Part shown: positions 5,001 to 18,526 of the stretch, in pieces
How the letters are laid out: every line of letters starts with the position of its first letter
Numbering within the stretch: the first letter of the stretch is position 1
Origin: an uncultured Fibrobacteraceae bacterium
GTDB taxonomy: Bacteria > Krumholzibacteriota > Krumholzibacteriia > LZORAL124-64-63
Length of the DNA: 64,000 bases
Direction: 5' to 3'
Assembly: GCA_964461255.1 (NCBI GenBank)
Contig: CAYWTR010000003.1
Span: 91,144-155,143, forward strand
Notes under the pieces: model-generated
What the model was told of the DNA's origin: nothing
The model's input: only the letters and a program-made list of their open reading frames with translations
Databases searched by the model: none
Program-made: the position numbers and the translations under genes

Positions 5001-5243
5001 GTGCAGGGCGGCTCGTTCCTCCGCCGTCAGACCGCGCAGGAAAGCATCGTCGGCCTCCCAGCTCCAACCGTTGGCCGCGATGGCCTGGCGTGCGGCCTCA
5101 ACCTGGCGCGCGATCTCGTCGGCGGCGGTGGGCGCCGCCGCGGCCAGCATCAGCAGCAGGGCCACGCCCAGCGCCGCGGCGACGGCGCTGCGCTTGTCGG
5201 ATCGGAAACTCGACTGGCGGCCGGGACGATGCAGGTGATTCAT
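2061..5243 (-). CDS. Secreted papain-family (C1A) cysteine peptidase with Ig-like, right-handed beta-helix and C-terminal FlgD-Ig (T9SS-like) domains
   Basis: Signal peptide; FDWR, KNQGSCGSCWAF (catalytic Cys), NHLVLMVGWD (His), WICKNSWG (Asn); repeated GGA/GGG beta-helix coils; C-terminal PNPFNP...IYDLRGRRV...WDGRD...GVY. Confidence 0.88.
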   Translation of the reverse strand: MNHLHRPGRQSSFRSDKRSAVAAALGVALLLMLAAAAPTAADEIARQVEAARQAIAANGWSWEADDAFLRGLTAEERAALHGGLVMSPQDWKQWEARVEHLPVAKTLPSSFDWRALNGVTPVKNQGSCGSCWAFAALAGVESYVKIYYGPELDLSEQQIISCNPYGAGCSGGWAAAAYDVLMNHGGIDEHCMPYAGGLADLVPCTQTAYLPFVRLSSWRSIPNDIDQLKTAIMEGPVACAVDASGDFETYSGGCYEGGGPWTNHLVLMVGWDDRLCNGAGAWICKNSWGTGFGMAGYFYIKYGAAGIGSGATQPIYAPPPASFLLTAPGGNVAIRADTQTEVRWDTAGAAPAQVDIHFSADDLCFETLVAAGVPNTGSYLWTVPNVATTSGRLLVHVAGNIHNGYGFSARLTILGHKVRYVSVTGSNTLPYESQETAAHTIGAAVLACTGFDSVMIAAGDYIESVSINGPVRLFGGWNADFTQRDPDATPTRWRGLSSALRFWSGAGDFAGVDGVTFHDCQGTMFDQPSQGTHGGAILSVGASPTVRGCVFENSRAAFGSQFGLGGAILAVGGSPVIEACSFIGNVATRGGALALHQPLGAQLRGNFFSANTLSDSTAANTGGALHVEGGAVALSGDVFSDHDGANEGGALFADAADLSMTDVVLERNRAVLKGGGLLVRGGSAVVQGGRWRDNRAGTGGGGGGAFEGGTTVVRNLLSSGNRAGGLGGGLMVTSAAGGSVENCLLLGNRSDALGGGLFVTATGAYAVRNTIIAGNIGNGLAGGGTQLVVDHNDIWDNSGGDYAGVTPGAHDLALDPRFLDAPGEDYALGLHSPCVDRGDPDPAGNDPDGSRADIGLRGGPQGGLEAPAAVAGAAVAADAEGGWRLSWTPNAEPDVAAYVVYRDTAAVFIPGPDKSAALLPHPTAAWIDRAPPPGAYYLIAALDAAGRMGGYSQLLRPETTGVDGGLPPAALRISVVAPNPFNPRTTIGFDVAREGRIQLRIYDLRGRRVRTLIDAPLAAGGHQAVWDGRDERGDAVAAGVYLARLSAGGETRTAKAVLAR

Positions 5244-5321
5244 GCGAGACCTCTCCCCGGAATGGTGGCGCAGCAGGATCGCACAACTGCCCGCGAGCGT
5301 GCATTTCTCCATGATAATGCC

Positions 5322-5385: not shown

Positions 5386-7401
5386 TCAGTACACGCCGCA
5401 GGGGTCGATGTCCAGGCTCACATCCACCCCTCGCGCCTGCCCCGCGGCGGCGCGGGCGCAGTCGGCCAGCCATGCCTTCTGCCGCGCCGACATCTCCCCC
5501 TTGATGAGAATCTGCCAGCGATGCCGGTCCTGCAGGCGAGGGAAGACCGCCGGCGCCGGTCCCAGGACCTCGCGCGCCGGGCTCGCCAGCCCCGCGGCGA
5601 GCGCTACCGCCAGGCTGGCGGCGGCGGCTTCGACGGGCGCGGGGCGGCGGCCGCTGACGGCCACGCGCGCGAGCCGGCGCGCGGGCGGATACCCGAGGGC
5701 GCCGCGCAACGCCAGCTCCTGCTCGGCGAACGCCGCGTAGTCGTGCGCGGCGGCGGCGCGGACGATCGGGTGCTCGGGCCTCCAGGTCTGGAAGATGACC
5801 AGGCCCGGACGCGTGCGGCCGGTGCGCCCGGCCACCTGCGTCAGCAGCTGGAAGGTGCGCTCGTCGGCGCGGAAGTCTGGCAGAGTCAGCCCGTCGTCGG
5901 CCGCCAGCACGCCGACCAGCTCGACCTCGGGGAAATGGTGCCCCTTGGCCACCATCTGGGTTCCGACCAGGATCCCCGCGCGCCCGGAGGCGAACGCGGC
6001 GAGGATGCGACCGTGCCCGCCCCGCCCACGCGCGGCGTCCTGGTCCAGGCGCAGCACGGCGGTCTCGGGGAAATGAGCGCGCAGCGCCAGCTCCACCCGT
6101 TCGGTGCCGCCGCCGGCGGGCAGGAAGCGGCTGCCGCCGCAGCCCGGGCAGCGCGCCGGCGCGGGGCGGGCGTGCCCGCAGTAATGGCAGAGCAGGCGAC
6201 GCGGGCGCAGGTGGTAGGTCAGGCCGATGTCGCAGCGCGGGCAGAGGCTGGCCTCGCCGCAATCGGCGCACTGCAGCGCGCGTGCGAAGCCGCGGCGATT
6301 GTAGTAGAGGATGATCTGGCGTCCTCGCGCCAGCGTGTGCTCCATCGCCTCGAGCAGGCGGGCGGAGAACCCTTCGGCAGCGGCGTCGCCGCGCATGTCG
6401 ACGATCTCGACGGCCGGCAGTTCGCCTATGGGGCGGTCGCTCAGATGGAACAGCCGATAGCGGCCGGCGGAGGCGTTGGCGTGGCTTTCCAGGTCGGGCG
6501 TGGCCGAGCCCAGAAGCACCACGGCACCCGCCGCCCGCGCGCGGATCAGGGCGGCGTGCCGGGCGTGGTAACGCGGTTTCTCGTCCTGTTTGTAGGAGAG
6601 GTCATGCTCCTCGTCGACGACGATCACGCCCAGGTCGCGCACGGGGGCGAACAGCGCCGAGCGCGGGCCGACGATCACGCGCAGTTCGCCCGCCGCCGCC
6701 GCCTCGTGGACGCGGCTGCGCTCGCCGGCCGCCAGCCCGCTGTGCAGGGCGCCCACGGCGCCGCCGAAGCGGGCGGTGATGCGCGCCATGGTCTGCGGCG
6801 TCAGCGCGATCTCCGGCAGCAGGAAAATGGCCCCCCGGCCCTGCGCCAGGGCCGCGGCGATCACGCGCAAATAGACCTCGGTCTTGCCGCTGCCGGTCAC
6901 TCCGTGCAGCAACAAGACGCCGAAACGCCTGGCCTGCAGGCCGGCCGCGCCGGCAGCCGCGGCCCGGTCCTGCACCGGCGTCAGGACGATGTCGGCGGGA
7001 TCCGTGGGCTCGCTCAGGGGGTAGGCGGGCGGCGGCGCGGCGCGCGCGGCCCGCGCGCGCGTGCCCGGCGCGGGCGGATGGAACAGCGGCACCACCTCGC
7101 CCAGCGGCAGGGCGTAGTAGTCGGCCAGCCAGAGGGCCAGTTCGAGCCGATCGCGCTCCAGCCGGTAGGCATCCGGCAGGCGCCTCGTCACCGCCCGCAG
7201 CGGGTGCCCGGCGACGTCGCCGGCGGCCGCCGCCTCGCGCGCCGCCACCACCAGCCCGACCACCTGCCGCCGGCGACCGAAGGGCACGACCACCAGATCG
7301 CCGCGTTCGGGCGCGCGCCCTCCTCCCTCGCCGCCGCCGTCCCAGCGGTAGGTGAAAGTATGCGGCAGAGGCACCGGCAGGGCGATCTCGACCAGCAGCA
7401 T
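5386..7401 (-). CDS. priA: Primosomal protein N' (replication restart helicase)
   Basis: LLHGVTGSGKTEVY, IVVDEEHDLSYKQ, two CxxC...CxxC zinc motifs, ILVGTQMVAKGHHFP, and TFQLLTQVAGRTGR. Confidence 0.96.
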   Translation of the reverse strand: MLLVEIALPVPLPHTFTYRWDGGGEGGGRAPERGDLVVVPFGRRRQVVGLVVAAREAAAAGDVAGHPLRAVTRRLPDAYRLERDRLELALWLADYYALPLGEVVPLFHPPAPGTRARAARAAPPPAYPLSEPTDPADIVLTPVQDRAAAAGAAGLQARRFGVLLLHGVTGSGKTEVYLRVIAAALAQGRGAIFLLPEIALTPQTMARITARFGGAVGALHSGLAAGERSRVHEAAAAGELRVIVGPRSALFAPVRDLGVIVVDEEHDLSYKQDEKPRYHARHAALIRARAAGAVVLLGSATPDLESHANASAGRYRLFHLSDRPIGELPAVEIVDMRGDAAAEGFSARLLEAMEHTLARGRQIILYYNRRGFARALQCADCGEASLCPRCDIGLTYHLRPRRLLCHYCGHARPAPARCPGCGGSRFLPAGGGTERVELALRAHFPETAVLRLDQDAARGRGGHGRILAAFASGRAGILVGTQMVAKGHHFPEVELVGVLAADDGLTLPDFRADERTFQLLTQVAGRTGRTRPGLVIFQTWRPEHPIVRAAAAHDYAAFAEQELALRGALGYPPARRLARVAVSGRRPAPVEAAAASLAVALAAGLASPAREVLGPAPAVFPRLQDRHRWQILIKGEMSARQKAWLADCARAAAGQARGVDVSLDIDPCGVY

Positions 7402-7447
7402 GCCGCCATCGTAGCGCCGGCACGCCGTCGCGGCAACGGCCAGCGGC

Positions 7448-7822
7448 TCAACCGTGGCGCACGCCCAGAAGCGTTTGCACCTTTTCGAGCAGGCGTTGGG
7501 GGCTGAAAGGCTTGGTGACGTAGGCGTCCGCGCCCGCCTGCCGACCAAGCTCGCGGTCCTCTCGGCGGCCGCGCGCGGTCAGCAGGATCACGGGGACGTC
7601 GGCCGTGCGGCGATCCTGCTTGAGTTCCCGGCAAACTTCGAAACCGCTGCGCCGCGGCATCATGACGTCGAGCACGATCAGGTCGGGCGGCTCCGCGCGC
7701 GCCTGGGCCAGGGCCTGCTCGCCGTCGGCGACCGCGAGCACACGGTACCCTTCCGCGCCGAGGCTGAATTCGAGGATGTTCAGGATGCTGGCTTCGTCAT
7801 CGCAGATCAGGATGGTGCGCAA
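7448..7822 (-). CDS. Stand-alone response regulator receiver protein
   Basis: ILICDDE, LIVLDVMMP (phospho-Asp), LLTA and KPF; TTG start with a GAGGAGG RBS. Confidence 0.9.
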   Translation of the reverse strand: MRTILICDDEASILNILEFSLGAEGYRVLAVADGEQALAQARAEPPDLIVLDVMMPRRSGFEVCRELKQDRRTADVPVILLTARGRREDRELGRQAGADAYVTKPFSPQRLLEKVQTLLGVRHG

Positions 7823-7885
7823 ACCATTCCTCCTCGCGCTGCGGCAGCCGCCGGCGACGCGCGCGGCGGACCAGAATGGGTATCG

Positions 7886-10519
7886 TCAGCGCGCGGTCAG
7901 GCTTGAGATCGGCTCCGCGGGGGCAGCGTCCTCGGAGGCTTCGCCGGTAGTCGCCTCCTGCTGCAGCGCGGCGATGCAGGAGGCGCGCTGGCGGGCCTCG
8001 AGCAGGAAGGAGGCGGCCAGCCGCGGGCAGAATTGGCTGCCCGCCAGCCGTTCGATCTCCGCCAGCGCCGCCGGCAGCGCCAGCGGCGGGCGGTAGGGGC
8101 GGCCCTGCAGCATGGCGTTGAGGCTGTCGGTCAGGGCCAGCAGACGGGCGCCGATCGGGATCGCCTCGCCCTCCAGGCGGTCGGGATAGCCCTCGCCGTC
8201 ATAGCGTTCGTGATGGTGCGCGATGATCTGCCGCACCTTGGGGGAGGTCTCCAGCGGTTGCAGTATCTCCAAACCGTGGCGCACATGCTGGCGGATCAGG
8301 TCGCGTTCGGCGCCGGAAAGGGGCTGCGGCTTGCGCAGCAGCTGCGACGAGACCCGCGACAGACCGACGTCGTAGAAGCGCAGGGCGAAGGCCAGGTTCT
8401 CCAACTCCTCCTGCGGCAGCTTCAGGCGCCGCGCCGTCGCCAGGCAGATCTCGTGGCAGGCGTCCGCCAGGTGGTCGCAGCGTTCGCGACGCAGCGCCGC
8501 GGCGGTGCGCAGCGCGTCGCGCAACGCCACGAACTCCTCCGCCTGCCGGGTGAAACCGCGCAGGCGCGTCAGCAGATGCGCCACGCGCGGCGCCAACGAC
8601 TCCAGCAGCAGCAGGTCGTCGGCGTTGAAGGCGCGCCCGTCCAGCCGGTTGTTGACATTGACGACGCCGATGCAGGCCAGGCCCTCGAGCAGCGGCACGC
8701 TCAGCAGCGAGGGGGTGGCGTACTGCGGGTCATTGCTGCGTTTGCCCAGCCGCGGATCGGCCGCCACGTCGGTGACCAGCAGACTGCGCCCGCTGACCCA
8801 GACCTTGCCGGCGATCCCCTCCCCGCGTCGGACGCGGGTCGCCTGCACGATGCTCTCGGCCAGCCCCACCGCCGCCTCCACCACGAGCTGGTCGCCATGC
8901 TCGTCGGGCGTCATCAGGGAAACGCTGCGGACCCCCATCGTCTCCCCGATCCAGTGCACCAGCTTCTCCACGAACGCACGAGGATCGTTGAACACCGGTC
9001 GGGCCGCTTCCGCGCGCACGCGCTGCACCACCCGGTTGCGACGCGGCAGCACCACCTGGAACCGCGTCCCCTGCGGGCTGAGATTCTCGGCCCAGATCTG
9101 CCCTTCGTGCCACTGGACGATGTCGCGGCAGATGGCCAGCCCGACGCCCTGGCCGCCGTGCTCGCGCGTCGACGAACCATCGGCCTGGAAGAAGCGGTCG
9201 AAGATGTACTCCATCTTGTCGGCGGGGATGCCGATGCCATCGTCCTCCACCACCAGACGCACGCTGGCGATGCCATCGGTCAGGACTAGCCGGACGCTGC
9301 CGCCGGCGGGCGTGAACTTGAAAGCGTTGTCCAGCAGCTGCGCCACCACCTGGGCCAGCTGCGCCGCGTCGGCGTGAAGCGGCAGGGGCGAGGCCGACAG
9401 CCGCGCCTGGAAGTGGATGCCCTTGGCCGATGCCTGAGCCGCGGCGCGTTTCGCCTCGGCGCCCACCACCTCGGCCAGGTCGATCTCGCTGCGGTTGATC
9501 CGCGCCGGGCCGTCCTCCAGGCGCGACAGGTGCAGGATGTTGTCGATGATGGCGGTCAGCTTTTCGCTTTCCTGATGGATCACGCCCAGGAACTCCTGGC
9601 GCATGGTTTCCGACATCGCCGCCTGATTGTGCACCAGGGTCTCGGTATAGGCCTTGATCGACGTCAGCGGCGTCCGCAGCTCGTGGCTGACGTTCGCCAC
9701 GAAATTGCTCTTCATCTCGTTGAGGTTCTGCAGCAGATCCGAGGCGCGCGCCAGCTCGCCGTTGCTGCGTGCCAGACGCTCGTGCAGCGCCGCCGTGTCG
9801 ATGGCGATGACGGCCTGCGCCGCGAACAGCTCGAGCAGCCGCATGGTGTCGAGCGAGGGGATGCGGCGGTCTTCGGGATCGTCGACGCTCAGATAGCCGC
9901 GCACCTCGCCGTCTGCGGGGTCTCTCAGGGGCACAATCAGCATGTCTTCCTCGTGCCACTCGTCCGGCGCCCTCGCCCCCAGCTGGGGCGTGTAGCCTCC
10001 CGCCGCCACCTCGCTCCACTGTTCGTCCGTGTGGCTGATGAAGTAGCTCTCCGAGAGCTTGAACCTCGGCTGCGTCAGCTTGCGATACTGTTCCAGCGAT
10101 ACCTGCAGCCCGGCCAACTGCGCCTTGCCATCGTCGTCGATGCCGGCGAAGGCCCGCGCCTCGAAGGACTGGGTGGCAGGCGAGTAGATCCGCAGCAGCA
10201 CCATGCGGAAACCCAACGACTCGCGCACCGCCTGCGCGATCTGGTCGAGGACGTCGTTGAGCGAGCGCATCGCCTTGATGCGCGCCGCGAGCTGCAGGAT
10301 TCGCTCCAGGCTGCGCGCGCGGCGCTGCAGCAGCTCGCACCGATCGCGCAGATCGGCCAGGCTTCGCGCGGCATCCGCTTCCCGCGCCCGCCCCTCCGCC
10401 AGCGCCGTCGCCAGGGCGGCGCGCTCGGCCGCCAGCGCCTCGCAACGCGCGGTCATGGCACGCTCGCGGCGGCGGCGTTCGCTCCCGGACAGGCGGGCCA
10501 GGAAATCGGCCATAGCCAT
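7886..10519 (-). CDS. Soluble GAF-HisKA-HATPase-GAF-HD-GYP fusion protein with degenerate HD motif (YD)
   Basis: SHELRTPLTSI, NAFKFT, DDGIGI and GQGVGL kinase boxes; two GAF-like segments; RFYDVG, HHERYDGEGYP and RPYR. Confidence 0.85.
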   Translation of the reverse strand: MAMADFLARLSGSERRRRERAMTARCEALAAERAALATALAEGRAREADAARSLADLRDRCELLQRRARSLERILQLAARIKAMRSLNDVLDQIAQAVRESLGFRMVLLRIYSPATQSFEARAFAGIDDDGKAQLAGLQVSLEQYRKLTQPRFKLSESYFISHTDEQWSEVAAGGYTPQLGARAPDEWHEEDMLIVPLRDPADGEVRGYLSVDDPEDRRIPSLDTMRLLELFAAQAVIAIDTAALHERLARSNGELARASDLLQNLNEMKSNFVANVSHELRTPLTSIKAYTETLVHNQAAMSETMRQEFLGVIHQESEKLTAIIDNILHLSRLEDGPARINRSEIDLAEVVGAEAKRAAAQASAKGIHFQARLSASPLPLHADAAQLAQVVAQLLDNAFKFTPAGGSVRLVLTDGIASVRLVVEDDGIGIPADKMEYIFDRFFQADGSSTREHGGQGVGLAICRDIVQWHEGQIWAENLSPQGTRFQVVLPRRNRVVQRVRAEAARPVFNDPRAFVEKLVHWIGETMGVRSVSLMTPDEHGDQLVVEAAVGLAESIVQATRVRRGEGIAGKVWVSGRSLLVTDVAADPRLGKRSNDPQYATPSLLSVPLLEGLACIGVVNVNNRLDGRAFNADDLLLLESLAPRVAHLLTRLRGFTRQAEEFVALRDALRTAAALRRERCDHLADACHEICLATARRLKLPQEELENLAFALRFYDVGLSRVSSQLLRKPQPLSGAERDLIRQHVRHGLEILQPLETSPKVRQIIAHHHERYDGEGYPDRLEGEAIPIGARLLALTDSLNAMLQGRPYRPPLALPAALAEIERLAGSQFCPRLAASFLLEARQRASCIAALQQEATTGEASEDAAPAEPISSLTAR

Positions 10520-10537
10520 GGCGGACAGGTCGCCTCC

Positions 10538-10924
10538 CTAACGGGGGTGGGCCCGGGCGAGCAGCAGCTGCTGCACCCGCTCCACCAGCCTGGCGATCAC
10601 GAATGGCTTGCGCATGAAGAGGTCGGCACCCGCGGCCAGCACATCCTCCCGCGCCTGGGCATTGGAGGACGCCGAAAGCGCGATCACGATCGTCTCGGCG
10701 TAGCTGCGGTTGCGCCGGATCAACCTGGTGGTCTCCACGCCGTCCAACTTGGGCATCATGATGTCCATGACGATCACCTCGGGACGGAAGACCGCCACCT
10801 TGTTCATGCAGTCGATGCCGTCCCGCGCCGTGGCGACCTGGAACTGCTCGCCCGTGAAGGCGTGGCACAGCAGCTGGGTCAGCGGCGCCTCGTCGTCGAC
10901 GATCAGGATGCGCGGCGCGGCCAT
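10538..10924 (-). CDS. Stand-alone response regulator receiver protein
   Basis: ILIVDDE, VIVMDIMMP and RKPF; the ATG overlaps the upstream stop (TGATG). Confidence 0.9.
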   Translation of the reverse strand: MAAPRILIVDDEAPLTQLLCHAFTGEQFQVATARDGIDCMNKVAVFRPEVIVMDIMMPKLDGVETTRLIRRNRSYAETIVIALSASSNAQAREDVLAAGADLFMRKPFVIARLVERVQQLLLARAHPR

Positions 10925-13875
10925 CAGCGTTCCTCCCCCCGCGCACGTCCCGCGGCGGCCCCGGCGGGGGCATGATCGGCGTCCAGGCCGCCGGAGGGCG
11001 CAAGGCCCTCTTCCCGCAGCACCGCCAGGAAGGCCTCGACCACCACCGGATCGAACTGCGTGCCGGCATGCGCCTTTATCTCTGCCATGATCTCGTCCGG
11101 CGCCAGCCGCGCCCGATAGGGCCGCCGCTGCGTCATGGCGAAGAAGGCGTCCAGCACCGCCAGCACGCGCGCGCCGAGCGGGATGTCGGCGCCCTGCAGG
11201 CCGCGCGGATAGCCGCGTCCGTCAGGCCGCTCGTGATGCGCCAGGATGATGCTCTCCATTTCCGGGGTCTGCAGCAGCGGCGCCACCATCGTCACGCCCT
11301 GAGCGGGGTGCTGCCCGACCTCTTCCCGCTCGTCCGCCGTCAGCGGGCCGGCCTTGAGCACGATGTCCTCGTCGACCGCCACCATGCCGACGTCGTGCAA
11401 CGAGGCCACGTACTGCAGGCGCGCGACCTCGGCGCCGGACATGTCCAGCCGCCGCGCCGTCCGCACCAGCAGCCGCAGCGCCAGGGGCGAGGCGGTGGGG
11501 ATGGCGCTGCGCTTCATCAGGATCAGCGCCTGCAGCGCGTCGACCACGGCCTCCACCCGCCGCGCCGAGGAATCGGCTTGCATCGCCTGGGTCAGCGCCG
11601 CCGAGACCTTCTCGGCAAGCGTCACCAGCAGCGCCAGGTCGTCCTCGTTGAAGGAGCCGCCCGCCACCTTGTTGTTGACGTTGATGACGCCCAACGGCCT
11701 GCCCTGCACCACCAGCGGCACCGACAGCAGCGAGTTGGTCTCGTACTGGTCGCGGTTGCCGGCGGCGAGCAGCCCGTCGCGCTCGACATCCTTGACCAGG
11801 AGCGGCCGCCCCGACTGCAGGACGCGTCCGGCGATCCCCTTGCCGACCGCCACATGCGCGCTCTTGACGATGCCTTCGTTCAGTCCGTAGGCCGACTGCA
11901 CGACCAGGTTGCGCCCCTCCCGATCGAGCAGCATCAGGGAGACGATCTTCGACTCCGTCATCTCCGCGATCATGCGCACGGTCAGACGCAGCAGCTGCTG
12001 AAACTGCGGGCGCGTGGTCAGGTCGCCCAGGATTGCCGCCGTCACCGGATTCAGTTGATGCTCCTTGGGCAGATGGAAGGTGAAGGAGGCCCCCTCGCCC
12101 GGCACGCTCTGCACGTCGATGTGCCCGCCGTGAAGGTCGATGATGTTCTTGACGATGGCCAGGCCCAGCCCCTGCCCCTCGACCCCCTCGGTGCCGCCGC
12201 CCACGCGGTAGAACTGCCGGAAGATGCGCCGCAGATCCTCGGGCGGGATGCCGGGGCCGGTGTCGCTGACGGTGACGCGCACCGTGGCGGCGTCCTCGCA
12301 GGCGCGGACGCAGACCAGACCGCCGGCCGGCGTGTACTTGACGGCGTTGTTGAGGAGGTTCATCAGCACCTGGCGGATCAGATCCGGATCGACCTCGACG
12401 CGGGGCAGCAGGGACGGGCAGGCGATGTCCAGGCGCAGCCCCCTGGCGGCGACGAGCGGCTCGAGCGCGCGCACGGTATCCCGCACCAGCGGCTCCAGGT
12501 CGACAACCTGGCGGTTGAGCAGGCGTTCGCCCAGGTCGCTGCGCGAGAAATCGAGGATCCTGTTGACCATCCGCAGCAGACGCTCCGACTCCTCGCGGAT
12601 CACGCCCAGGAACTCCCGGGTCTGGGTGAAAGCGGGCAGATCGTCCTGGCGCAGCAACGCCTCGGTGTAGGCGCTGATCGAGGTCAGCGGCGTCTTGAGT
12701 TCATGGCTGGCCACGGCCACGAAATCGCCCTGCATCTTGTTGATGCGCGTCAGGGTCTCGTTCTCGGCGTGCAGGGTGGCGAGCTCGCGCCGCACGCGCG
12801 CCAGATGGTGCCCGGCCGCCAGCAGCGGAGCCAGTTGGCCGGCCAGGCGCGCCATGGCGGCGCGCAGATACACCTCGTCGCTTTCGCCCCGGCGCGTGCC
12901 GGCCAGCACGATCAGCGCGGCGCGCCCCGGCTCGCCGACCGGGGTCAGCGTCCAGGCGTCCCAGGCGGGCGCAGCCGCGGGCGGAAAGCCGATCGCGCGC
13001 AGCGTCGCGGCGCCGCCGGACCGGAACGGCTCGGTCTGCTCCACGTGCAGCAGATCGAAGAAGATGGCCGCTTCGCGCGGCAGTTCCAACCATTCCGGCC
13101 AGGTCTGGCCCGCTGCCAGCGCGAGGCAGCGGCGGCCGCCGCTGGCGCCCGGCCCGCAAAGCTCCGCCCAGCCGGGCGCGGCGATGACGGCGGCGAATTG
13201 CACCCCCGGCAGCCGACGCAGCGCCTGCAGCATCTCGACCAGCAGCTCGGCCAGATCGCCCTGTTCGCGCAGCGCCGCGCTGGCGGCCGCGGCGGAGCGC
13301 TGGGCCAGCTCGTCCACCGGTTCCGGCGTCGCCACCCAGCCGGCCGGCAGCGTGCGGCCAGCCGTGCGCACGAGGTAGGTGACCGACAGCATCAACGCGC
13401 CCAACATCAGCGCCATGCCCAACGCCAGCCGGCCGTCGACGCCGCCGGCCGCGTCCGGCCAGCTCCGCAGGCTGGCGACCGCCAGCAGCGCCACCAGCGC
13501 CGCGGAAACGGCGTAGCCGTCGCGCGCCCGGCGGCAGAGCAGGCCGGCATGCGCGGCCGGGAAGACCAGCAGGAGCAGATAGGGACTGGCGACGCCGCCG
13601 GTGAGCAGCAGAACGGGCAGCCAGGCGGCGGCGTCGAAGGCCAGCACCAGACCGGCCCGCAGGCCAGAGCCGCCGGCGGCCGCGTCGCGCGCCGCGAGCA
13701 ACACCAGCAGCAGCTGCAGCGCCGCGCCCACGCCGAAGGCGGCCAGCACAGGCGGCAGCGGGAAGACCAGCCCGCCCAGCTCGCGCGACAGCAAGACCAC
13801 CAGCAGCCCGACCGTGAGCTCGGCCCAGCGCACGTGGCGCAGCAGAAATCGATGGGTGTCTACCGCTCGTTCCAC
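10924..13875 (-). CDS. Membrane-bound HisKA-HATPase-GAF-HD-GYP fusion protein
   Basis: Several N-terminal hydrophobic helices; [24 protein letters not shown] and GQGLGL; a GAF domain; [17 protein letters not shown] and RPYR. Confidence 0.85.
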
Positions 13876-13921
13876 CGGCCGTCCCGCTCCTCCCCGGCGT
13901 TCGGATCCGCGGCGCCGGCGC

Positions 13922-14920
13922 TCAGGGCCGCTGGACGGCGTCGGACGCGGCGCCCGCGATCGCCTCGGCGCCGCCCCCCGCTTCGGCAGGGGCGCGCCGT
14001 TCCTTGACGACCACGCTGCCGGCGATGGTCTTGCCGTAGCTCTTCAGCTCGGCCGCCATGTCGCTCAGGCGCGCGATGTGAGGGAACTGCACCGCCGAGC
14101 CGGTCACCAGCGCGATGGTCAGCGAGATCAGCGGCACCGCTACCTCCGCACCGGAACGGCTGCGGACGCGGACATGGCCGCGTTCCCGATCCTGAGGGTC
14201 GTACAGATCGGCGACCTGCGCGTCGAAATCGCGCACGATCCGCTCGCCGAGCAGTTCGGCGCAGCCGGGCCGGGTGACGATCACGAAGTCGTCGCCGCCG
14301 ACGTGACCGATGAAGAGGTGGGGATCGCCCGCTTCCTGGGCCGCCGCCGTCAGGACGCGCGCCAGGAAGGTGATCGCCTCGTCGCCGCGCGAATACCCGT
14401 AGTGATCGTTGAAGCCCTTGAAGTTGTCGATGTCCAGGTAGAGGAAGCTGAAGGCCTCGCCCGAGCGGATTCGGCGCTGCACTTCCTGGTCGATGGCGTG
14501 GTTGCCGGGCAGGCCGGTCAGCGGGTTGGCGTCGCGCTGCGCCTGGCTCCAATCCAGCATGTTGCGGATGCGCAGCATCAGCTCGTCATGGTTGAAGGGC
14601 TTGGTCAGGTAATCGTTGGCGCCGCCGCGCAGGCCGCGCACCTTCTCCGAGCTCTCCCCCTTGGCGGTCAGCATGATGACCGGGATCCAGCTGGTCTGGA
14701 AATTGGCGCGCAGCCGCTCGAGCATGTGGAAACCATCCATTTTCGGCATCATCACGTCGAGCAGGATCAGGTCGGGCTGGACGGCTTCCAGGCAGTCCAG
14801 CGCCGCCTGGCCATTCTCCGCCAGGGCGACTTCGAAGCCCTCCTGCTGCAGCAGGAATTGCAGGATTTTGCGGATGTGCGGCTCGTCGTCGACAACGAGG
14901 ATCTTGCGCGCGCTGGCCAT
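13922..14920 (-). CDS. Response regulator diguanylate cyclase (REC-GGDEF)
   Basis: Receiver (ILLDVMMP, KPF), then DANPLTGLPGN, DIDNFKGFNDHYGYSRGD and HVGGDDF; ATG at 14920 with a GGGGAG RBS. Confidence 0.92.
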   Translation of the reverse strand: MASARKILVVDDEPHIRKILQFLLQQEGFEVALAENGQAALDCLEAVQPDLILLDVMMPKMDGFHMLERLRANFQTSWIPVIMLTAKGESSEKVRGLRGGANDYLTKPFNHDELMLRIRNMLDWSQAQRDANPLTGLPGNHAIDQEVQRRIRSGEAFSFLYLDIDNFKGFNDHYGYSRGDEAITFLARVLTAAAQEAGDPHLFIGHVGGDDFVIVTRPGCAELLGERIVRDFDAQVADLYDPQDRERGHVRVRSRSGAEVAVPLISLTIALVTGSAVQFPHIARLSDMAAELKSYGKTIAGSVVVKERRAPAEAGGGAEAIAGAASDAVQRP

Positions 14921-15058
14921 GATCTCCCCCGCGAGTTTTCGAGGAAAACGGGGCATCCGGATCCCGTTTATTGGAACCGGCTCGAAGGGTAATCAAGGCA
15001 AATTACATGCCATCAAAAGGATGGGGAGCGAACGGCAGGGAACCGGGGCGCGGGCCGA

Positions 15059-16069
15059 TCATCGCCAGGAATCGAGCGCCCCGCGGGCGAAGGCGTCCAG
15101 ATCCCAGCCGTCGGCGCGCCCGGCGGCCAGCCGGCAGGCGCCGGCATGGGCGATCATGGCGGCGTTGTCCGTGCAGTATGCAGGCGGAGGCGGCAGGAAA
15201 TGCAGCCCGCACGAGGCCGTGGCGGCCGCAACCTGTTCGCGCAGCCTGCGGTTGGCGGCGACGCCGCCCGCCAGGTACACGGCCTGCACCCCGCGCGCGG
15301 CGGCGGCTTGCAAAAGACGGGCGGTCAGCACTTCGACGATCGCCTCCTGCAGTTCGACCGCCACATCGGCCACGTCCTGCGCCGACAGCGGCCGCGGCAG
15401 CTGCGCCACCGCCAGCTTGACCGCCGTCTTGAGCCCGCTGAAGCTGAACACCGGCCGTGGGTCGCCCAGCAACGGACGCGGGAAGCGGAAGCGGCCCGGC
15501 CTCCCCTCGCCGGCCCGCTGATCGATGGCCGGTCCGCCCGGGTAGGGCAGACCCAGTAGCTGCGCGGTCTTGTCGAACGTCTCTCCCGCCGCGTCGTCGA
15601 GCGTGCCGCCCAGACGCTCGTAGCGCCCGATCTCGGCCACGTGCACCAGCTCCGTGTGCCCGCCCGAGACCACGAGCGCCACCGCCGGCAGCCGCAGCGG
15701 CGCCGCCAGCGCGTTGGCCAGGATGTGCCCCTCGATGTGGTGCACGCCGACCACCGGCTTGCCCGCGGTCAGCGCCAGAGCCTTGGCGGTGGCGACCCCG
15801 ACCAGCAACGCGCCGATCAGTCCCGGGCCGTTGGTGACCGCCACGCCGTCGAGATCGCGCAGGCGCAATCCTTGCCGCCGCAGGGCCAGCTCGACCAACG
15901 GCAGCAGGTTGACCAGGTGCGCGCGCGACGCGAGCTCCGGCACGACGCCCCCGAACTGCCCGTGAAGATCGACCTGCGAGGAGACCAGATTCTCCAGCAC
16001 GCCCCGTTCGCGGTCGTACAGGGCCACGCTCGTGTCATCGCAGCTTGTCTCGATGCCGAGCACGAGCAC
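15059..16069 (-). CDS. tsaD: tRNA N6-adenosine threonylcarbamoyltransferase TsaD
   Basis: LGIETSCDDT, GGVVPELASRAH, HHIEGH, VSGGHT, DDAAGETFDK and YCTDNAAMI. Confidence 0.96.
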   Translation of the reverse strand: MLVLGIETSCDDTSVALYDRERGVLENLVSSQVDLHGQFGGVVPELASRAHLVNLLPLVELALRRQGLRLRDLDGVAVTNGPGLIGALLVGVATAKALALTAGKPVVGVHHIEGHILANALAAPLRLPAVALVVSGGHTELVHVAEIGRYERLGGTLDDAAGETFDKTAQLLGLPYPGGPAIDQRAGEGRPGRFRFPRPLLGDPRPVFSFSGLKTAVKLAVAQLPRPLSAQDVADVAVELQEAIVEVLTARLLQAAAARGVQAVYLAGGVAANRRLREQVAAATASCGLHFLPPPPAYCTDNAAMIAHAGACRLAAGRADGWDLDAFARGALDSWR

Positions 16070-16075
16070 GCCGTC

Positions 16076-17644
16076 TCACCCGCCCCCGTCCGGCGCCCTG
16101 CGGCGCTCCAGTTCGGCGAAGGCCCCGCCCAACGCGGCCGCGACCTCGCGCGCCAGCACGCTGCGACGCGATCCTTCGTCCGCCGCGATCCGGCCAGCGC
16201 GGCCGTGCAGGTAAGCGCCCAGAAGCGCCGCCGCCAGCGGCCCGCATCCCTGGGCGAGCAAGCCGCCGATCAATCCCGCCAGCACATCGCCCGTGCCGCC
16301 GTGCGCCAGGGCGTCATCGCCCGTCGGATTGATGTGCACGCCGCCTCCGGGCGCGGCGATCACGGTGGGCGATCCCTTCAGCAGCAGCGTCACTCCCCAC
16401 CGCTCCGCCAGCTCGGGCGCCAGCTCCAGACGCCGCCTATCGATCTCCGAGGCGTGCGTGCCCAGCAGCCGCGCCAGCTCGCCGGCGTGCGGCGTCAACA
16501 CCAGCCGGCCCCGTCCGGCGGGCGTCTTGCCCAGCCGCGCGTGGGCGGTCAGCGCGTCGGCGTCGACCACCGCCGGCAGCTCCAGCGCGTCCAGCAGTTC
16601 CAGCACCCAGCGGTCGGTCTCCGGATCCTCGCCCATCCCCGGGCCGATGGCCACGGCGTGCTGCTTGCGGAGCATCTCCGCGGCCACGGCCGGCGGCCAG
16701 GGGGCCAGCGTGCCGGAGGCCGTCATCGGCAGGGGGCGCACGATCGCCTCGGGCAGCGCGGTCCGCGCGGGCGACGCCAGCGTTTCCGGCAAGGCCACCG
16801 TGACCAGGCCCGCGCCCGAGCGCAGAGCCCCCATGCCGGCCAGCACCGCCGCACCGCCGTAGGCGCGCGAGCCGCCCACGACCAGCACCGTGCCGCAGCG
16901 ATACTTGTGCAGGTCGCTGGCGCGGGCCGGCAGAAGCGCCGCGTAATCGTCCGGAAGCAGCAGCCGGCGGTCGGGGACCAGCTCCTCCACCGCCGCGGGC
17001 GGCAGGCCGATGTCGACCACGGCCAGCTCGCCCACGTGGTCGCGGCCCGGCGGCAGCAGCAGCCCCAGCTTGGGCAGACCCACCGTGACGGTGGCGCTGG
17101 CCCGCACCGCCACCGGATCCACCCGGCCGTTGTCGGCGTCGACCCCCGACGGCACGTCCACGCTCAGCACCGGCGCCCTCAGCCCCTGGAACGCAGCCAA
17201 CAACTCCGCGTAGGGGGCGCGCACGGGCGTCCTGATGCCCGTGCCCAGCACCGCGTCGACCGCCAGCTCCGCGGCCCCGGCGACCTCGCGCCAGCGCGCC
17301 GCCCATTCCCCCGCCGGCGCGGCGACCACGCGCACCGCGGACGGCAGGCGGCCGTGGTTCAGGCGCGCGTCGGGGGCCATGTCCTCCGGCAGCCCGAGCA
17401 GCAGCACCGTGACCTGGAACCCCAAGCTGTCCAGCAGCCGCGCCATCACCAGACCGTCGCCGCCGTTGTTGCCCTTGCCGCAGCAGATCGCCACGCGCCC
17501 TGGCGGCGCCAGGGCGGGGAAAAGGTCGAGCAGCGCCCTGACGATCTCGCGGCCGGCTCGTTCCATCAGCTGCGCGCCAGGCGTGCCCGCCGCGATGGCC
17601 TGGCTGTCCACCCGCGCCATTTCCGCCGCCGTCGCCACGCGCAT
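16076..17644 (-). CDS. nnr: Bifunctional NAD(P)H-hydrate epimerase/dehydratase
   Basis: LMERAG, CGKGNNGGDG, VDAVLGTG, VDVPSG, GGSRAYGGA, VVDADAL, LTPHAGE and GGTGDVLAG. The ATG at 17644 gives better RBS spacing than the one at 17650. Confidence 0.94.
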   Translation of the reverse strand: MRVATAAEMARVDSQAIAAGTPGAQLMERAGREIVRALLDLFPALAPPGRVAICCGKGNNGGDGLVMARLLDSLGFQVTVLLLGLPEDMAPDARLNHGRLPSAVRVVAAPAGEWAARWREVAGAAELAVDAVLGTGIRTPVRAPYAELLAAFQGLRAPVLSVDVPSGVDADNGRVDPVAVRASATVTVGLPKLGLLLPPGRDHVGELAVVDIGLPPAAVEELVPDRRLLLPDDYAALLPARASDLHKYRCGTVLVVGGSRAYGGAAVLAGMGALRSGAGLVTVALPETLASPARTALPEAIVRPLPMTASGTLAPWPPAVAAEMLRKQHAVAIGPGMGEDPETDRWVLELLDALELPAVVDADALTAHARLGKTPAGRGRLVLTPHAGELARLLGTHASEIDRRRLELAPELAERWGVTLLLKGSPTVIAAPGGGVHINPTGDDALAHGGTGDVLAGLIGGLLAQGCGPLAAALLGAYLHGRAGRIAADEGSRRSVLAREVAAALGGAFAELERRRAPDGGG

Positions 17645-17668
17645 GCGCATGACCTCCCTGCCGCCGGT

Positions 17669-18409
17669 TCAGCCCGCCGCGTTCAGGCGGTCGAGCACGT
17701 CGCAGAGCTGCATCATGTCGTCGATCTCGAAGTCGGCGCCCGAATGCTCTCGGCGCTCCCGATCGGTCGAGGCGTACGTGTCTCCGTAGCGGGCGTAGAC
17801 CGTGTGCAGCCCTGCCTCGCCCGCGCCGATGATGTCCCGCTCGGGCCAGTCGCCCACCATGACCGCGCGCGCCGCCTCCACCTCCAGCCGCTGCAGCGCC
17901 AGCTGGAACGGCACCGGACTCGGTTTGCGATGCTGGGTGTCATCGAAGGTCAACACCAGATCGAAGACGTGGTGCAGGCGCAGCATGCACAGGCGTATCC
18001 AGGCCTCGAAACGCGGCGCGTCGCTGACCACCGCCAGCTTGTACCCGTCCTTGAGCAGCCGGTTCAGGGTCAACACCACGTGCGGGTAGGGCACGAGCAC
18101 GCCGTCGCGGGCGCGGCGATAGGCCACGACCGCCGCCGCCAGCACCCGGTCGTCGACCCGTCCCAGCTCCTGTTGCAGGAAGGTGTCGAACACCCGCTGG
18201 TACTCGATGCCGCGATCGTCGTAGATCGCCCTGATGCGCGCCCGTCCCGCGCCCGGGTCGAGGCGCAGCCCGGCGTCGATCATCGCGTCGACGGCGGCTT
18301 CGATCGCGCGCTGCTTGGCGCCCATGAAATCGCACAGCGTGTTGTCCAGATCGAAGATGACGGCCTCGATCGCGCCGCCCGAGCACCGTGGCCGCTTCGC
18401 ATCCTTCAA
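17669..18409 (-). CDS. HAD-superfamily hydrolase/phosphatase
   Basis: VIFDLDNTL (motif I), VVSDA, KPSP and MVGDWPERDIIGA. Confidence 0.88.
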   Translation of the reverse strand: MKDAKRPRCSGGAIEAVIFDLDNTLCDFMGAKQRAIEAAVDAMIDAGLRLDPGAGRARIRAIYDDRGIEYQRVFDTFLQQELGRVDDRVLAAAVVAYRRARDGVLVPYPHVVLTLNRLLKDGYKLAVVSDAPRFEAWIRLCMLRLHHVFDLVLTFDDTQHRKPSPVPFQLALQRLEVEAARAVMVGDWPERDIIGAGEAGLHTVYARYGDTYASTDRERREHSGADFEIDDMMQLCDVLDRLNAAG

Positions 18410-18450
18410 TTGCCCTCACATCCCTTCCGGCGGCCGCGGCCGCCCGCCCG

Positions 18451-18479
18451 ATAGTACGTGGCGGCGCCGCCTCTGCCAA
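18451..18479 (-). promoter_or_regulatory. Candidate sigma70 promoter for the HAD-nnr-tsaD operon
   Basis: Minus-strand TTGGCA-17 nt-TACTAT. Confidence 0.5.
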
Positions 18480-18497
18480 GAGCGGGCGCCCCCTGCC

Positions 18498-18526
18498 TGG
18501 ACAGCGCCCGCCGCCTCTGCCAGAAT
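18498..18526 (+). promoter_or_regulatory. Candidate sigma70 promoter for the CPBP protease
   Basis: TGGACA-17 nt-CAGAAT. Confidence 0.45.

Follow-up and report, generated by a model that had tools for sequence, protein, structure and literature searches.

On the minus strand of the window, the 64,000-nt stretch of DNA analysed here, five genes (G1, HK1, R1, HK2 and R2) encode a response regulator, two histidine kinases and two single-domain receivers (Table 1). All are open reading frames with which the Pfam assignments agree, confirming the sequence-only reading of five co-oriented genes with these domains. The genes are tightly packed, with gaps in the order G1-HK1-R1-HK2-R2 of 46, -1, 18 and 63 nt, the second being a TGATG overlap in which the R1 start codon shares 1 nt with the HK1 stop. 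Transcripts of the operon are present in a wastewater metatranscriptome, where contigs from RNA runs bridge the gene junctions with zero mismatches; one contig (7210-13109) covers the R2-priA junction and another (14744-18425) reaches from the G1 region into the tsaD side. The five genes are thus one conserved co-transcribed unit, and tsaD is probably part of the same transcript.

Table 1. Features of the signalling operon and its neighbours (positions in the window; tsaD and priA are given as context, outside the signalling module).
Gene	Feature	Position	Strand	Basis
tsaD	conserved upstream neighbour	15059-16069	-	
G1	response regulator, REC-GGDDF (REC ~14567-14902, GGDEF ~13991-14530)	13922-14920	-	Pfam
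HK1	membrane histidine kinase	10924-13875	-	Pfam, hydropathy, AF2
HK1	six TM helices	13351-13875	-	hydropathy, AF2
HK1	GAF-like domain	12871-13254	-	AF2/Foldseek
HK1	DHp-CA	12061-12732	-	Pfam
HK1	GAF	11593-12003	-	Pfam
HK1	degenerate HD-GYP, 'HDxGM' type	11026-11538	-	Pfam, HD-GYP alignment
R1	single-domain receiver	10538-10924	-	Pfam REC, E 1e-24
HK2	soluble histidine kinase	7886-10519	-	Pfam, 33-sequence alignment
HK2	GAF	9785-10282	-	Pfam (weak)
HK2	DHp-CA	9038-9715	-	Pfam
HK2	GAF	8573-8986	-	Pfam
HK2	degenerate HD-GYP, 'YDxGL' type	8000-8512	-	Pfam, PDB alignments
R2	single-domain receiver	7448-7822	-	Pfam REC, E 3e-30
priA	conserved downstream neighbour	5386-7401	-	

The long reading frame of G1 extends to 14956, and the ATG at 14920, which agrees with orthologue N-termini and with a Shine-Dalgarno-like GGGAGAG, is the more likely start. 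Pfam identifies a Response_reg domain (E 2e-34) and a GGDEF domain (E 1e-13), the latter covering only profile positions 5-88 of 161. The signature motif is GGDDF, not GGDEF, and a His replaces the Arg that precedes the GG; D175, D177, K180, N183, D192, GH-GGDDF, K305 and K309 are invariant among 52 homologues. N183 and D192 are equivalent to the guanine-specifying N335 and D344 of PleD and, as it contains D192, G1 does not have the Ser of Hypr cGAMP synthases. G1 has no RxxD I-site. The AlphaFold2 (AF2) model (mean pLDDT 88.6) displays a complete GGDEF fold with one inserted beta-hairpin (~residues 261-275), and its best Foldseek matches are WspR (3bre), PleD and DgcR (6zxb). GGDDF domains are usually inactive, as exemplified by PA3258; the GGDDF of GSU1937, however, was shown with a GacA fusion construct to be catalytically competent. 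Because the GTP- and Mg-binding residues are kept and the modelled fold is WspR/DgcR-like, G1 is probably an active diguanylate cyclase.

Both kinases contain HisKA, HATPase_c, GAF and HD_5/HD matches in Pfam, to which HK2 adds a weak N-terminal GAF. The prediction that HK1 is membrane-bound and HK2 soluble is borne out: the N-terminal ~175 residues of HK1 are hydrophobic and form six helices in an AF2 model of residues 1-375, whereas hydropathy revealed no transmembrane segment at the N terminus of HK2. For the HK1 domain that follows these helices the sole Foldseek matches are GAF domains, all weak (E > 0.001). The two proteins share 38% identity and are colinear across 630 amino acids (DHp-CA-GAF-HD-GYP) which, together with the GAF-like fold before the HK1 DHp, identifies them as whole-cassette paralogues with the common layout GAF-DHp-CA-GAF-HD-GYP. 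The N, G1 and G2 boxes are present in both. The phospho-acceptors are likewise retained, as had been proposed: H391 in HK1, H279 in HK2, and D67, D54 and D52 in G1, R1 and R2, respectively, each Asp being accompanied by the DD pair, T/S and K of receiver domains. In an alignment of R1 orthologues D10/D11, D54, S84 and K106 are kept.

Gene order is identical in all seven orthologous Krumholzibacteriota loci (L081-L087) and recurs in more distant ones, and thus the arrangement does not reflect chance. A reduced form with three genes (REC-GGDDF, one kinase and one receiver) is found in an Eisenbacteria metagenome-assembled genome (MAG; L088) and in unclassified MAGs (L089 and L001), where it adjoins tsaD, usually with priA nearby. 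Of the 11 loci that cover the region, 10 have tsaD immediately upstream of the module; in the other, L089, one small opposite-strand HTH gene intervenes. In most related loci priA lies immediately downstream of R2. Kinase, cyclase and HD-GYP tail are likely to be functionally linked, since a REC-GGDDF gene accompanies an HK-GAF-HD-GYP kinase and one single-domain receiver in two or more named candidate phyla. Clear R1-type orthologues (57-70% identity) occur only in L081-L087; R2 is the most conserved partner of the module, at 51-77% identity in each of the 12 related loci, among them those of the Eisenbacteria and unclassified MAGs. This pattern suggests a core module of G1, a GAF-DHp-CA-GAF-HD-GYP kinase and R2. 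The whole kinase cassette would have been duplicated in this Krumholzibacteriia-like lineage, giving the six-TM 'HDxGM-GYP' HK1 and the soluble 'YDxGL-GYP' HK2, with R1 presumably added there as a second receiver.

The sequence-only reading had the kinase tails destroy or sense c-di-GMP. The first of these roles is not upheld by the residues present. In the GAF-HD-GYP phosphodiesterase PmGH, hydrolysis is essentially abolished by the mutations D183A, H189A, H221A, K225A and D308A, and alanine substitution of E185 markedly reduces activity; Y285A, R314A and K317A, in contrast, do not abolish hydrolysis. Both HK1 and HK2 lack equivalents of D183, E185, H189, K225 and D308. HK2 has in addition lost H221, its YDVGL aligning opposite HDIGK in PDB matches. 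The residue census comprised 137 sequences, mostly HK2-type, plus an HK1-type set (55 for the HD motif, nine for H189). Among these ~190 family members, the D183, H189 and K225 positions are non-canonical in every member examined, and D308 is retained in only two, both HK1-type. In the 137-sequence census K225 is never Lys, D183 and D308 are never Asp, H189 is never His, and H221 is replaced by Tyr in 127 ('YD-GYP'); the 33-sequence HK2 alignment has H279 and D717 invariant and Y716 nearly so. D222, H250, H276, H277, E278, G284, P286 and D305 are nevertheless kept in 137/137, as are Y285 in 135, R314 in 134 and R/K317 in 136. Conservation of the KPG motif is only partial, which weighs against the sensing model described below. 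HK1-type tails retain H221, D222, H250, H276, H277 and D305, with HD[VA]GM in 54 of 55 sequences and a His at the H189 position in none of nine. A His three residues upstream of that position, conserved in 88 of the 137 mostly HK2-type sequences, might stand in for H189.

PmGH with iron at the G-site alone still binds c-di-GMP, and the RxY[R/K] motif, which contacts the guanine base, has been described as a determinant of c-di-GMP specificity. Since catalytic residues are lost while D222, H250, H276, H277, D305, the GYP motif and the RxY[R/K] contacts are near-invariant, the tails are more likely c-di-GMP receptors or adaptors than phosphodiesterases. It should be emphasized, however, that the metal site itself (H250, H276, H277, D222 and D305 invariant) is evidently under continuing selection, which could reflect residual or re-wired catalysis and would count against a role restricted to sensing.

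We give about even odds to the view that the operon is a two-component/c-di-GMP system of an activated-sludge Krumholzibacteriia-like bacterium in which degenerate tails sense the dinucleotide and do not destroy it. In this model N-terminal GAF-type sensors would read signals that control autophosphorylation at H391 and H279, and phosphate would pass to G1 and the single receivers; the nearly identical DHp alpha-1 helices of HK1 and HK2 suggest that the kinases probably share partners. Phosphorylated G1 would dimerize and synthesize c-di-GMP, as do WspR and DgcR, probably without built-in product inhibition as the RxxD I-site is missing. The PmGH-like GAF-HD-GYP module of each kinase is predicted to be unable to hydrolyse the product, owing to the loss of the H-site metal ligands and of the D183/K225 pair. 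Retaining the G-site ligands, GYP motif and RxY[R/K] contacts, it would instead bind c-di-GMP as a receptor and signal through the helical stalk to the kinase/phosphatase core, closing the loop by sensing, not degradation. R2, and R1 where present, may provide a second output or act as phosphate sinks. Such feedback is plausible, given that the residues contacting c-di-GMP are conserved and that HD-GYP receptors without catalytic activity have precedents. Nor is the loop required everywhere, since no kinase gene adjoins G1 and R2 in L090; the oscillator also proposed from the sequence is speculation.

It could be argued that the tails are nucleotide-independent adaptors that hold the GGDEF domain of G1 docked on the kinase and inactive as long as G1 is unphosphorylated, with release once that kinase phosphorylates it, a scaffold or anti-cyclase and not a sensor. 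In Lysobacter the REC-HD-GYP protein RpfG binds WspR (REC-GGDEF) and inhibits the cyclase independently of phosphodiesterase activity, WspR phosphorylation weakens this binding, and RpfG is also reported to interact with hybrid kinases independently of c-di-GMP (PMC8463545). The invariance of the GYP motif despite the loss of catalytic residues, and the adjacency of a kinase gene to G1 in Krumholzibacteriota, Eisenbacteria and unclassified MAG loci (L090 excepted), are also consistent with docking. Docking, however, has no obvious need for either the metal site or the guanine-contacting RxY[R/K] found in ~98% of members, and we regard this explanation as unlikely. Adaptor and c-di-GMP sensor roles are not mutually exclusive.

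That the tails, at least of the HD-retaining HK1 type, remain phosphodiesterases whose metal centre has been reduced or re-wired, making the kinases bifunctional, appears quite improbable. The ligands kept in HK1-type tails fit this proposal, as does RpfG, which lacks the E185 and H189 equivalents yet was initially reported as an active phosphodiesterase and for which Bellini et al. still suggest a binuclear centre. Against it stand the substitutions at the positions described above, at most of which a single alanine essentially abolishes PmGH activity, the missing H221 of HK2-type tails, and the YN-GYP protein PA2572, which has no detectable activity. Furthermore, L082 and L086 contain a YD-type kinase only and L089 an RD-type kinase, so the module can do without an HD-type tail. 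Very improbable, in our judgement, is a module not based on c-di-GMP, in which G1 is non-catalytic or has another specificity and the GAF-HD-GYP tail binds a cyclic mononucleotide (at the GAF), pGpG, cGAMP or (p)ppGpp. The non-canonical GGDDF and the half-profile Pfam match point in that direction, as do the kinase GAF domains, which share an N[KR]x5Fx3D pattern and whose closest solved structure (5w10, E 3e-15) was deposited as a cGMP-specific phosphodiesterase; an Rfam search of the window returned zero matches, c-di-GMP riboswitches included. These observations are countered by the guanine-specifying, Mg- and phosphate-binding residues of G1, its complete modelled fold and the RxY[R/K] of the tails.

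The architecture, a transmitter followed by GAF-HD-GYP with no intervening receiver, had been noted as unfamiliar among characterized proteins and, indeed, an HD-GYP census, a 2005 signalling census and full-text literature searches yielded no characterized example. It is not rare, however: clustering at 90% identity gives at least 170 clusters with the HK-GAF-HD-GYP layout in public data, some annotated merely as 'HD domain-containing phosphohydrolase'. The operon is a real, conserved and uncharacterized variant of known two-component/c-di-GMP wiring. The C-terminal half of each kinase resembles PmGH of Persephonella marina (4MCW/4MDZ) in its GAF-helical linker-HD-GYP organization (4mcw alignments: GAF, E 3e-7; HD-GYP, E 1e-18 and 1e-16), HHExxDGxGYP motif and remaining G-site and guanine-contacting residues, but is degenerate and preceded in the same protein by a complete DHp-CA transmitter. 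Regulatory HD-GYP folds with missing metal ligands are also found in DvhD of Desulfovibrio vulgaris (9RBZ/9RC0), whose metal-free HD-GYP binds c-di-GMP and signals through stalk helices, and PA2572 of P. aeruginosa, in which a Tyr replaces the HD histidine as in HK2. For each tail, 9rbz ranks in the first five PDB matches by sequence. In DvhD the HD and HH motifs are both gone, reading SQ and MN, whereas HK1 and HK2 keep D222, HH and D305 and thus probably still bind one metal. Neither DvhD, a dCache-PAS-HD-GYP inside-out receptor, nor PA2572 (REC-YN-GYP) is fused to a kinase.

The proposed logic resembles that of Caulobacter, where a REC-GGDEF cyclase and a single receiver are both kinase targets (PleC/DivJ-DivK-PleD) and kinase activity in turn responds to c-di-GMP (ShkA and CckA-CtrA). 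There, however, the genes are scattered over the chromosome instead of forming one operon, and the sensing modules are unrelated to HD-GYP tails: ShkA is activated by c-di-GMP through a pseudo-receiver domain, and CckA senses it through its catalytic (CA) domain. The resemblance is one of possible working mode, not of family membership. In the RpfG-WspR pair of Lysobacter enzymogenes an HD-GYP protein likewise gates a REC-GGDEF cyclase, dependent on phosphorylation and independent of hydrolysis, but there RpfG is a stand-alone response regulator whose phosphodiesterase domain is active. G1 shares with WspR and DgcR a REC, a helical linker and a GGDEF fold with Mg/GTP-binding residues, and differs by its invariant GGDDF, pre-GG His, hairpin and missing I-site; GGDDF is also the motif of GSU1937, which is a Hypr enzyme (Ser348), whereas G1 retains the Asp. 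Finally, an Aminicenantes hybrid kinase (L025) combines transmitter and HD-GYP on one polypeptide in the expected arrangement, with a receiver between the transmitter and a canonical HD-GYP (DxYTxxHSxRV, HDVGK and DTYD); HK1 and HK2 carry a GAF in the receiver's place.

Five consecutive open reading frames on the minus strand of the window encode a REC-GGDEF response regulator (G1), a membrane kinase (HK1), a receiver (R1), a soluble kinase (HK2) and a second receiver (R2). From G1 to R2 the genes are separated by 46 nt, a 1-nt overlap (TGATG), 18 nt and 63 nt, a spacing that looks operon-like. The ORFs and their Pfam domains bear out the five-gene anatomy described in a sequence-only reading of this DNA, and the phospho-accepting residues that it reported in both kinases and all three receivers were found, the receivers each also keeping the acidic pair, the T/S and the lysine. 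Against NCBIfam the five genes gave generic two-component matches alone, every one below cut-off. The ATG at 14920, at which the earlier reading ended the locus, is a more likely start for G1 than the end of the longer ORF at 14956, as the orthologues begin there and the sequence GGGAGAG precedes it.

Features of the window discussed in the text (window coordinates)
Feature	Position	Strand	Size	Content
Five consecutive ORFs	7448-14956	-		G1, HK1, R1, HK2, R2
G1	13922-14956 or 14920	-	344 aa (332 aa from the likelier start)	Response_reg, GGDEF; phospho-acceptor D67
HK1	10924-13875	-	983 aa	HisKA, HATPase_c, GAF, HD_5/HD
GAF before HD-GYP, HK1	11593-12003	-
R1	10538-10924	-	128 aa	Response_reg; phospho-acceptor D54
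HK2	7886-10519	-	877 aa	Weak N-terminal GAF, HisKA, HATPase_c, GAF, HD_5/HD
GAF before HD-GYP, HK2	8573-8986	-
R2	7448-7822	-	124 aa	Response_reg; phospho-acceptor D52
tsaD-G1 spacer	14921-15058		138 nt	TTTG...TAATTTG
Weak hairpin, then T-run	15024-15010			Terminator scan
HAD-family gene	start 18409	-
Sigma-70-like promoter matches	18451-18526	divergent pair
C1 peptidase	2061-5312	-	1083 aa	Secreted-looking, papain-type
TPR/DUF4175/DUF4159 block, then ORF	19802-27326 and 27323-32161	-	ORF 1612 aa	TPR, DUF4175, DUF4159
SecD and SecF	32987-35702
RNA contigs	7210-13109; 13142-14773; 14744-18425			Wastewater RNA-seq

Both kinases carry the residues of a HisKA-type transmitter (H391, N510, DTGPG at 538 and GQGLGL at 567 in HK1; H279, N398, DDGIG at 426 and GQGVGL at 456 in HK2). 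Neither is a hybrid kinase: Pfam detected a Response_reg domain in neither protein, and a GAF domain directly follows the CA domain. The assignment of one kinase to the membrane and the other to the cytosol agrees with the approximately 175 hydrophobic residues, modelled as six helices, at the N terminus of HK1 and with the lack of an N-terminal transmembrane segment in HK2 of the window. In an AlphaFold2 (AF2) model of HK1 residues 1-375 (pLDDT 77) there comes, after the six transmembrane helices, a domain of mixed alpha/beta structure, for which Foldseek returned solely GAF domains (phytochromes, PDE6 and DosS), all of them weak matches (E > 0.001), and a long helix joins this GAF-like domain to the DHp domain. 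From the DHp to where the HD-GYP domain ends, both kinases are colinear, with 38% identity over 630 residues. On this alignment and model HK1 and HK2 are whole-cassette paralogues of the form GAF-DHp-CA-GAF-HD-GYP, HK1 having an added membrane domain, and the architecture is older than the duplication that separated them. The alpha-1 helices of the two DHp domains are almost alike (that of HK2 is HELRTPLTSIKAYTETL), from which we infer that HK1 and HK2 probably have overlapping receiver partners; among the receivers, the alpha-1 helices of G1 and R2 are closer to each other than either is to that of R1. All seven HK2 orthologues in Krumholzibacteriota have at least one N-terminal transmembrane segment, and in the closest two the N terminus extends about 150 aa further than in HK2 of the window, whose shortening is real and does not stem from a mis-called start, since R1 ends 18 nt upstream.

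The GAF domains that precede the HD-GYP domains contain the pattern N[KR]x5Fx3D, reminiscent of the NKFDE motif in GAF domains that bind cyclic nucleotides, and the solved structure closest to them is 5w10 (E 3e-15). It is possible that a cyclic mononucleotide serves as input at this position. Many HK1-type kinases (among relatives P0261-P0295 and in loci L083 and L084) have no Pfam-detectable GAF domain between the CA and HD-GYP domains, this match being weak or undetected in HK1 of L083-L085, and in several HK1-type kinases GHP replaces GYP. In the HK1 type this middle domain seems to be in decay, and in the HK2 type it is strongly conserved.

The tails of both kinases have the HD-GYP fold, as indicated by Pfam HD_5 matches (E 5e-32 for HK1 and 4e-34 for HK2), by matches to the PDB entries 5z7c, 4r8z, 9rbz and 4mcw, and by the motif HHExx(D/N)GxGYP in each, which in HK2 reads HHHERYDGEGYP. 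The tails were aligned with five canonical HD-GYP domains from other loci examined and with the orthologues. The canonical N-terminal motif, DxYTxxHSxRV, is absent from both (HK2 has RRERCDHLADACH there), HDxGK is replaced by HDVGM in HK1 and by YDVGL in HK2, which PDB alignments set opposite HDIGK, and DxxD is replaced by DAFF and DSLN, respectively. In the GAF-HD-GYP phosphodiesterase of Persephonella marina, PmGH, the metals are bound by E185, H189, H221, D222, H250, H276, H277 and D305 (Bellini et al.). Measured against the seven core ligands, with E185 treated as optional, HK1 lacks one and HK2 two; the putative catalytic pair, D183/K225, and the structural D308 are also substituted in both kinases, and the residues that contact c-di-GMP (Y285, R314 and K/R317) are present.

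HD-GYP residues of HK1, HK2 and 137 family sequences, mostly HK2-type (PmGH numbering)
Residue	HK1	HK2	Family census
D183	R	R	D in 0/137
H189	A	L	H in 0/137 (L, I, V or A instead)
H221	H	Y	Y 127/137, H 7/137
K225	M	L	K in 0/137 (L or M instead)
D308	F	N	D in 0/137
D222, H250, H276, H277, D305	present	present	kept in 137/137
E278, G284, P286			kept in 137/137
Y285	Y of GYP	Y of GYP	135/137
R314	in RPYR	in RPYR	134/137
R/K317	in RPYR	in RPYR	136/137

These substitutions run through the family. Sequences of the HK1 type read HD[VA]GM in 54 of 55 cases, keep D308 in 2 of 55 and have a histidine at the H189 position in none of the nine examined; the single kinase of an Eisenbacteria MAG (locus L088) is HD-type, and that of an unclassified MAG (L089) reads RD. 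A histidine that might stand in for H189 lies three residues upstream of that position in 88 of the 137 census sequences. Bellini et al. showed that alanine at H189, H221, D222, H250, H276 or H277 of PmGH essentially abolishes hydrolysis, as do D183A, K225A and D308A, that Y285A, R314A and K317A cause no substantial loss, and that c-di-GMP binding persists with G-site iron alone. Judged by its alignment, the family retains the G-site ligands, GYP and RxY[K/R], but the H-site is gone, as are the two residues proposed as acid and base, and the most economical reading is that the tail would still bind metal and c-di-GMP without hydrolysing the dinucleotide. It had been proposed that the tails destroy or sense the product of the cyclase. 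With the H-site, D183/K225 and D308 substituted in both kinases, destruction is unlikely; sensing is plausible.

The cyclase partner is also unusual. The receiver of G1 has D23/D24, T97 and K119 in addition to its phospho-acceptor, and the Pfam match to GGDEF stops about halfway along the profile (positions 5-88). The notion that the C-terminal half is some other domain was ruled out by an AF2 model (52 homologues; pLDDT 88.6), in which a helical linker joins the receiver to a GGDEF fold that is complete and has a single hairpin inserted at about residues 261-275. Its best PDB matches by Foldseek were WspR, PleD and DgcR, the top entries being 3bre (WspR), 9g86 and 6zxb (DgcR), with E 4e-25 to 1e-21. 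The signature is GGDDF, invariant in the 52 homologues, and departs from [G/A/S]G[D/E]E[F/Y]. The magnesium and GTP residues D175, K180, N183 and D192 (PleD D327, K332, N335 and D344) are invariant, as are D177, GH-GGDDF, K305, K309, R320 and R321; the PleD numbering comes from a manual alignment, in which K305 and K309 fall at about K442 and R446. As N183 and D192 are the counterparts of guanine-binding residues in PleD, G1 would be GTP-specific and not of the Hypr type; a Hypr cGAMP synthase, considered on account of GSU1937, was ruled out by the invariant aspartate D192, in place of serine, at the specificity position. A GGDDF signature is catalytically competent in Geobacter GSU1937, and the GGDDF-EAL protein PA3258 appears inactive. 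From its residues and model, G1 is probably a non-canonical but functional cyclase. The inhibitory RxxD I-site found five residues before GG[DE]EF, a common but not defining feature, is missing from G1 (ahead of GH-GGDDF, G1 of the window reads GDPHLFI and the consensus of its family xxxDFVGH). Feedback by the product would thus need a source other than G1 itself, in keeping with sensing by the kinase tails.

The neighbourhood is conserved, as the sequence-only reading had suggested should be checked. Seven orthologous loci in Krumholzibacteriota share the order HAD - nnr/yjeF - tsaD - [REC-GGDEF, (HK1), REC, HK2, REC] - priA, HK1 being missing from two of them (L082 and L086). HK2 has more than 120 full-length relatives by database search (43-68% identity), which share one Pfam set; the named ones derive from MAGs of Krumholzibacteria/Krumholzibacteriia or Latescibacteria, and the organism of the window is accordingly a Krumholzibacteriia-like bacterium. 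The GGDEF half of G1 has 3191 relatives at E ≤ 1e-5, from which three contigs were taken for a wider check of gene neighbourhood. L088 and L089 have a reduced form (tsaD - REC-GGDDF - GAF-HK-GAF-HD-GYP - REC) with priA nearby, and in the third, L090 (8001-9642), tsaD is followed by a REC-GGDDF gene and an R2-type receiver with no adjacent HK-HD-GYP kinase, which indicates that the cyclase-receiver pair is able to exist without a neighbouring fused kinase. In L001, which is more distant, tsaD is followed by G1, a pair of kinases, R2 and priA. The best conserved partner is R2 (51-77% identity across loci). By this comparison of gene orders the core module is G1, one kinase and an R2-type receiver, to which HK1 and R1 are lineage-specific additions. 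A scan of contigs for two unspecific peptide motifs, SHELRTPLT and HHE..DG.GY, collected at least 80 loci, mostly of ordinary kinases. Seeming kinase-to-HD-GYP spans in Solirubrobacterales, Phycisphaerae, Pirellulales, Chloroflexi and Undibacterium were rejected when the ORFs were extracted, being joined tblastn pieces of separate genes or kinases without HD-GYP. Only L001 and L002 among the contig-scan loci listed have the true architecture, and the scan thus lends no support to its occurrence beyond the Krumholzibacteriota/Eisenbacteria-like group.

The window sequence occurs in bioreactor and activated-sludge metagenomes, and a wastewater RNA-seq run yielded three assembled contigs that match it without mismatch. 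The first runs from priA into HK1, the second from HK1 into G1, and the third from G1 through tsaD and nnr to the HAD gene, so that the gene junctions are bridged; the region is therefore expressed and probably polycistronic, DNA carry-over in the RNA library being possible. Apparent read joints in which one side comprised 20-22 nt of 72% G+C sequence were treated as chance matches. The spacer between tsaD and G1, through which an RNA contig reads, has a lower G+C content than its surroundings and could, from its sequence, include an internal promoter, or an attenuator, that acts on the signalling genes. Scans for sigma-70 promoters and terminators yielded little beyond a promoter-like site upstream of the HAD gene and the weak hairpin between tsaD and G1. 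The divergent pair of sigma-70-like matches (two found against 0.3 expected from shuffles) lies between the HAD-family gene and a plus-strand gene for an Rce1-like CAAX protease. An Rfam scan of the 64-kb window found no c-di-GMP riboswitch and no other family. Elsewhere, the C1 peptidase was recognized by visible Cys/His/Asn motifs; the corresponding gene after priA in orthologous loci has Peptidase_C1, Beta_helix and FlgD_ig domains. The TPR/DUF4175/DUF4159 block, which we take to resemble a Bat/aerotolerance-type cluster, lies upstream, and where an orthologous locus reaches so far (L082 and L086) the TPR and DUF4175 genes are in synteny.

The mechanism that we favour is one of sensing and feedback. 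The N-terminal GAF-type sensors, together with the membrane domain of HK1, would read signals and set the balance between kinase and phosphatase activities; phosphate would pass to G1, R2 and R1, and phosphorylated G1 would make c-di-GMP; the dinucleotide would bind the degenerate HD-GYP tail, next to which the GAF domain may act as a second input; and the bound tail would modulate its kinase through the helical linker, closing a loop of positive or negative feedback. Taken with all its steps, we regard this scheme as having an even chance of being right. The oscillator that had been offered as one outcome of such a circuit is unsupported, as nothing found indicates one.

It could be argued that the tail is instead a nucleotide-independent adaptor that holds unphosphorylated G1, for which the capture of WspR by RpfG is a precedent; with its c-di-GMP contacts retained, we consider such a role unlikely. 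Somewhat less probable again is that the tail is a residual phosphodiesterase, mainly in HK1. Invariant as they are, the metal ligands could belong to a catalytic site that has been re-wired, and RpfG, which likewise has no equivalents of E185 and H189, cautions against too ready a call of inactivity; the acid/base pair is lost from HK1 as from HK2. That the ligand is not c-di-GMP, or that the chemistry of G1 differs, appears improbable; Galperin and Chou regard the RxY[K/R] motif as largely responsible for c-di-GMP specificity. Returning to the sensing and feedback scheme, we propose, tentatively and with slightly less than even confidence, that the YDxGL-GYP and HDxGM-GYP tails are a new class of c-di-GMP receptor in which the one-metal G-site is kept, the H-site is lost and the domain gates its own kinase, forming with an I-site-less REC-GGDDF cyclase a self-regulating loop within one operon. 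The genes for this loop adjoin tsaD and are usually near priA in Krumholzibacteriota, the Eisenbacteria MAG and related uncultured lineages; if the proposal is true, such conservation implies a core physiological role, for example in a growth or life-cycle switch.

The feature is real and conserved, a new variant of known two-component and c-di-GMP wiring and not a new kind of system. The loss of the H-site and D183/K225, with the G-site, GYP and RxY[R/K] kept, is like a natural separation-of-function experiment on binding versus catalysis. The labels given to these proteins in public records ('HD domain-containing phosphohydrolase', 'RpfG family c-di-GMP phosphodiesterase') are probably wrong for the tail on the residues it carries, making an annotation correction likely. 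For specialists in c-di-GMP the system is a good subject for study in vitro; as the organisms are uncultured, the impact hinges on such work.

In CckA, c-di-GMP is bound by the catalytic (CA) domain. Control of ShkA by c-di-GMP acts via a pseudo-receiver. Known c-di-GMP control of histidine kinases thus uses ad hoc binding sites, and a kinase family with a dedicated degenerate HD-GYP domain would provide a modular, bioinformatically recognisable coupling of phosphorelay to c-di-GMP. It would also join the very few HD-GYP domains on record as signal receivers and not enzymes: DvhD, whose metal-free HD-GYP domain is a c-di-GMP receptor that signals via stalk helices, and PA2572, a YN-GYP protein with undetectable activity but a regulatory role nonetheless. 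No description of a transmitter-GAF-HD-GYP protein was found in the HD-GYP census, a 2005 census of signal transduction or full-text literature searches, consistent with the earlier view that the architecture is uncharacterized. An Aminicenantes MAG (L025, 9368-11968) offers an example of the expected layout, with a receiver between transmitter and HD-GYP: its HisKA-HATPase-REC-HD-GYP hybrid kinase has 867 aa and multiple TM segments, and the HD-GYP domain is canonical throughout; the window kinases, in contrast, are receiver-less and degenerate. Their C-terminal module is homologous to the GAF-HD-GYP module of PmGH but, on its residues, would fall outside the catalytically active group. The logic of the locus is like that of PleC/DivJ-DivK-PleD combined with the c-di-GMP-regulated ShkA or CckA, although the sensing domain used here is unrelated.
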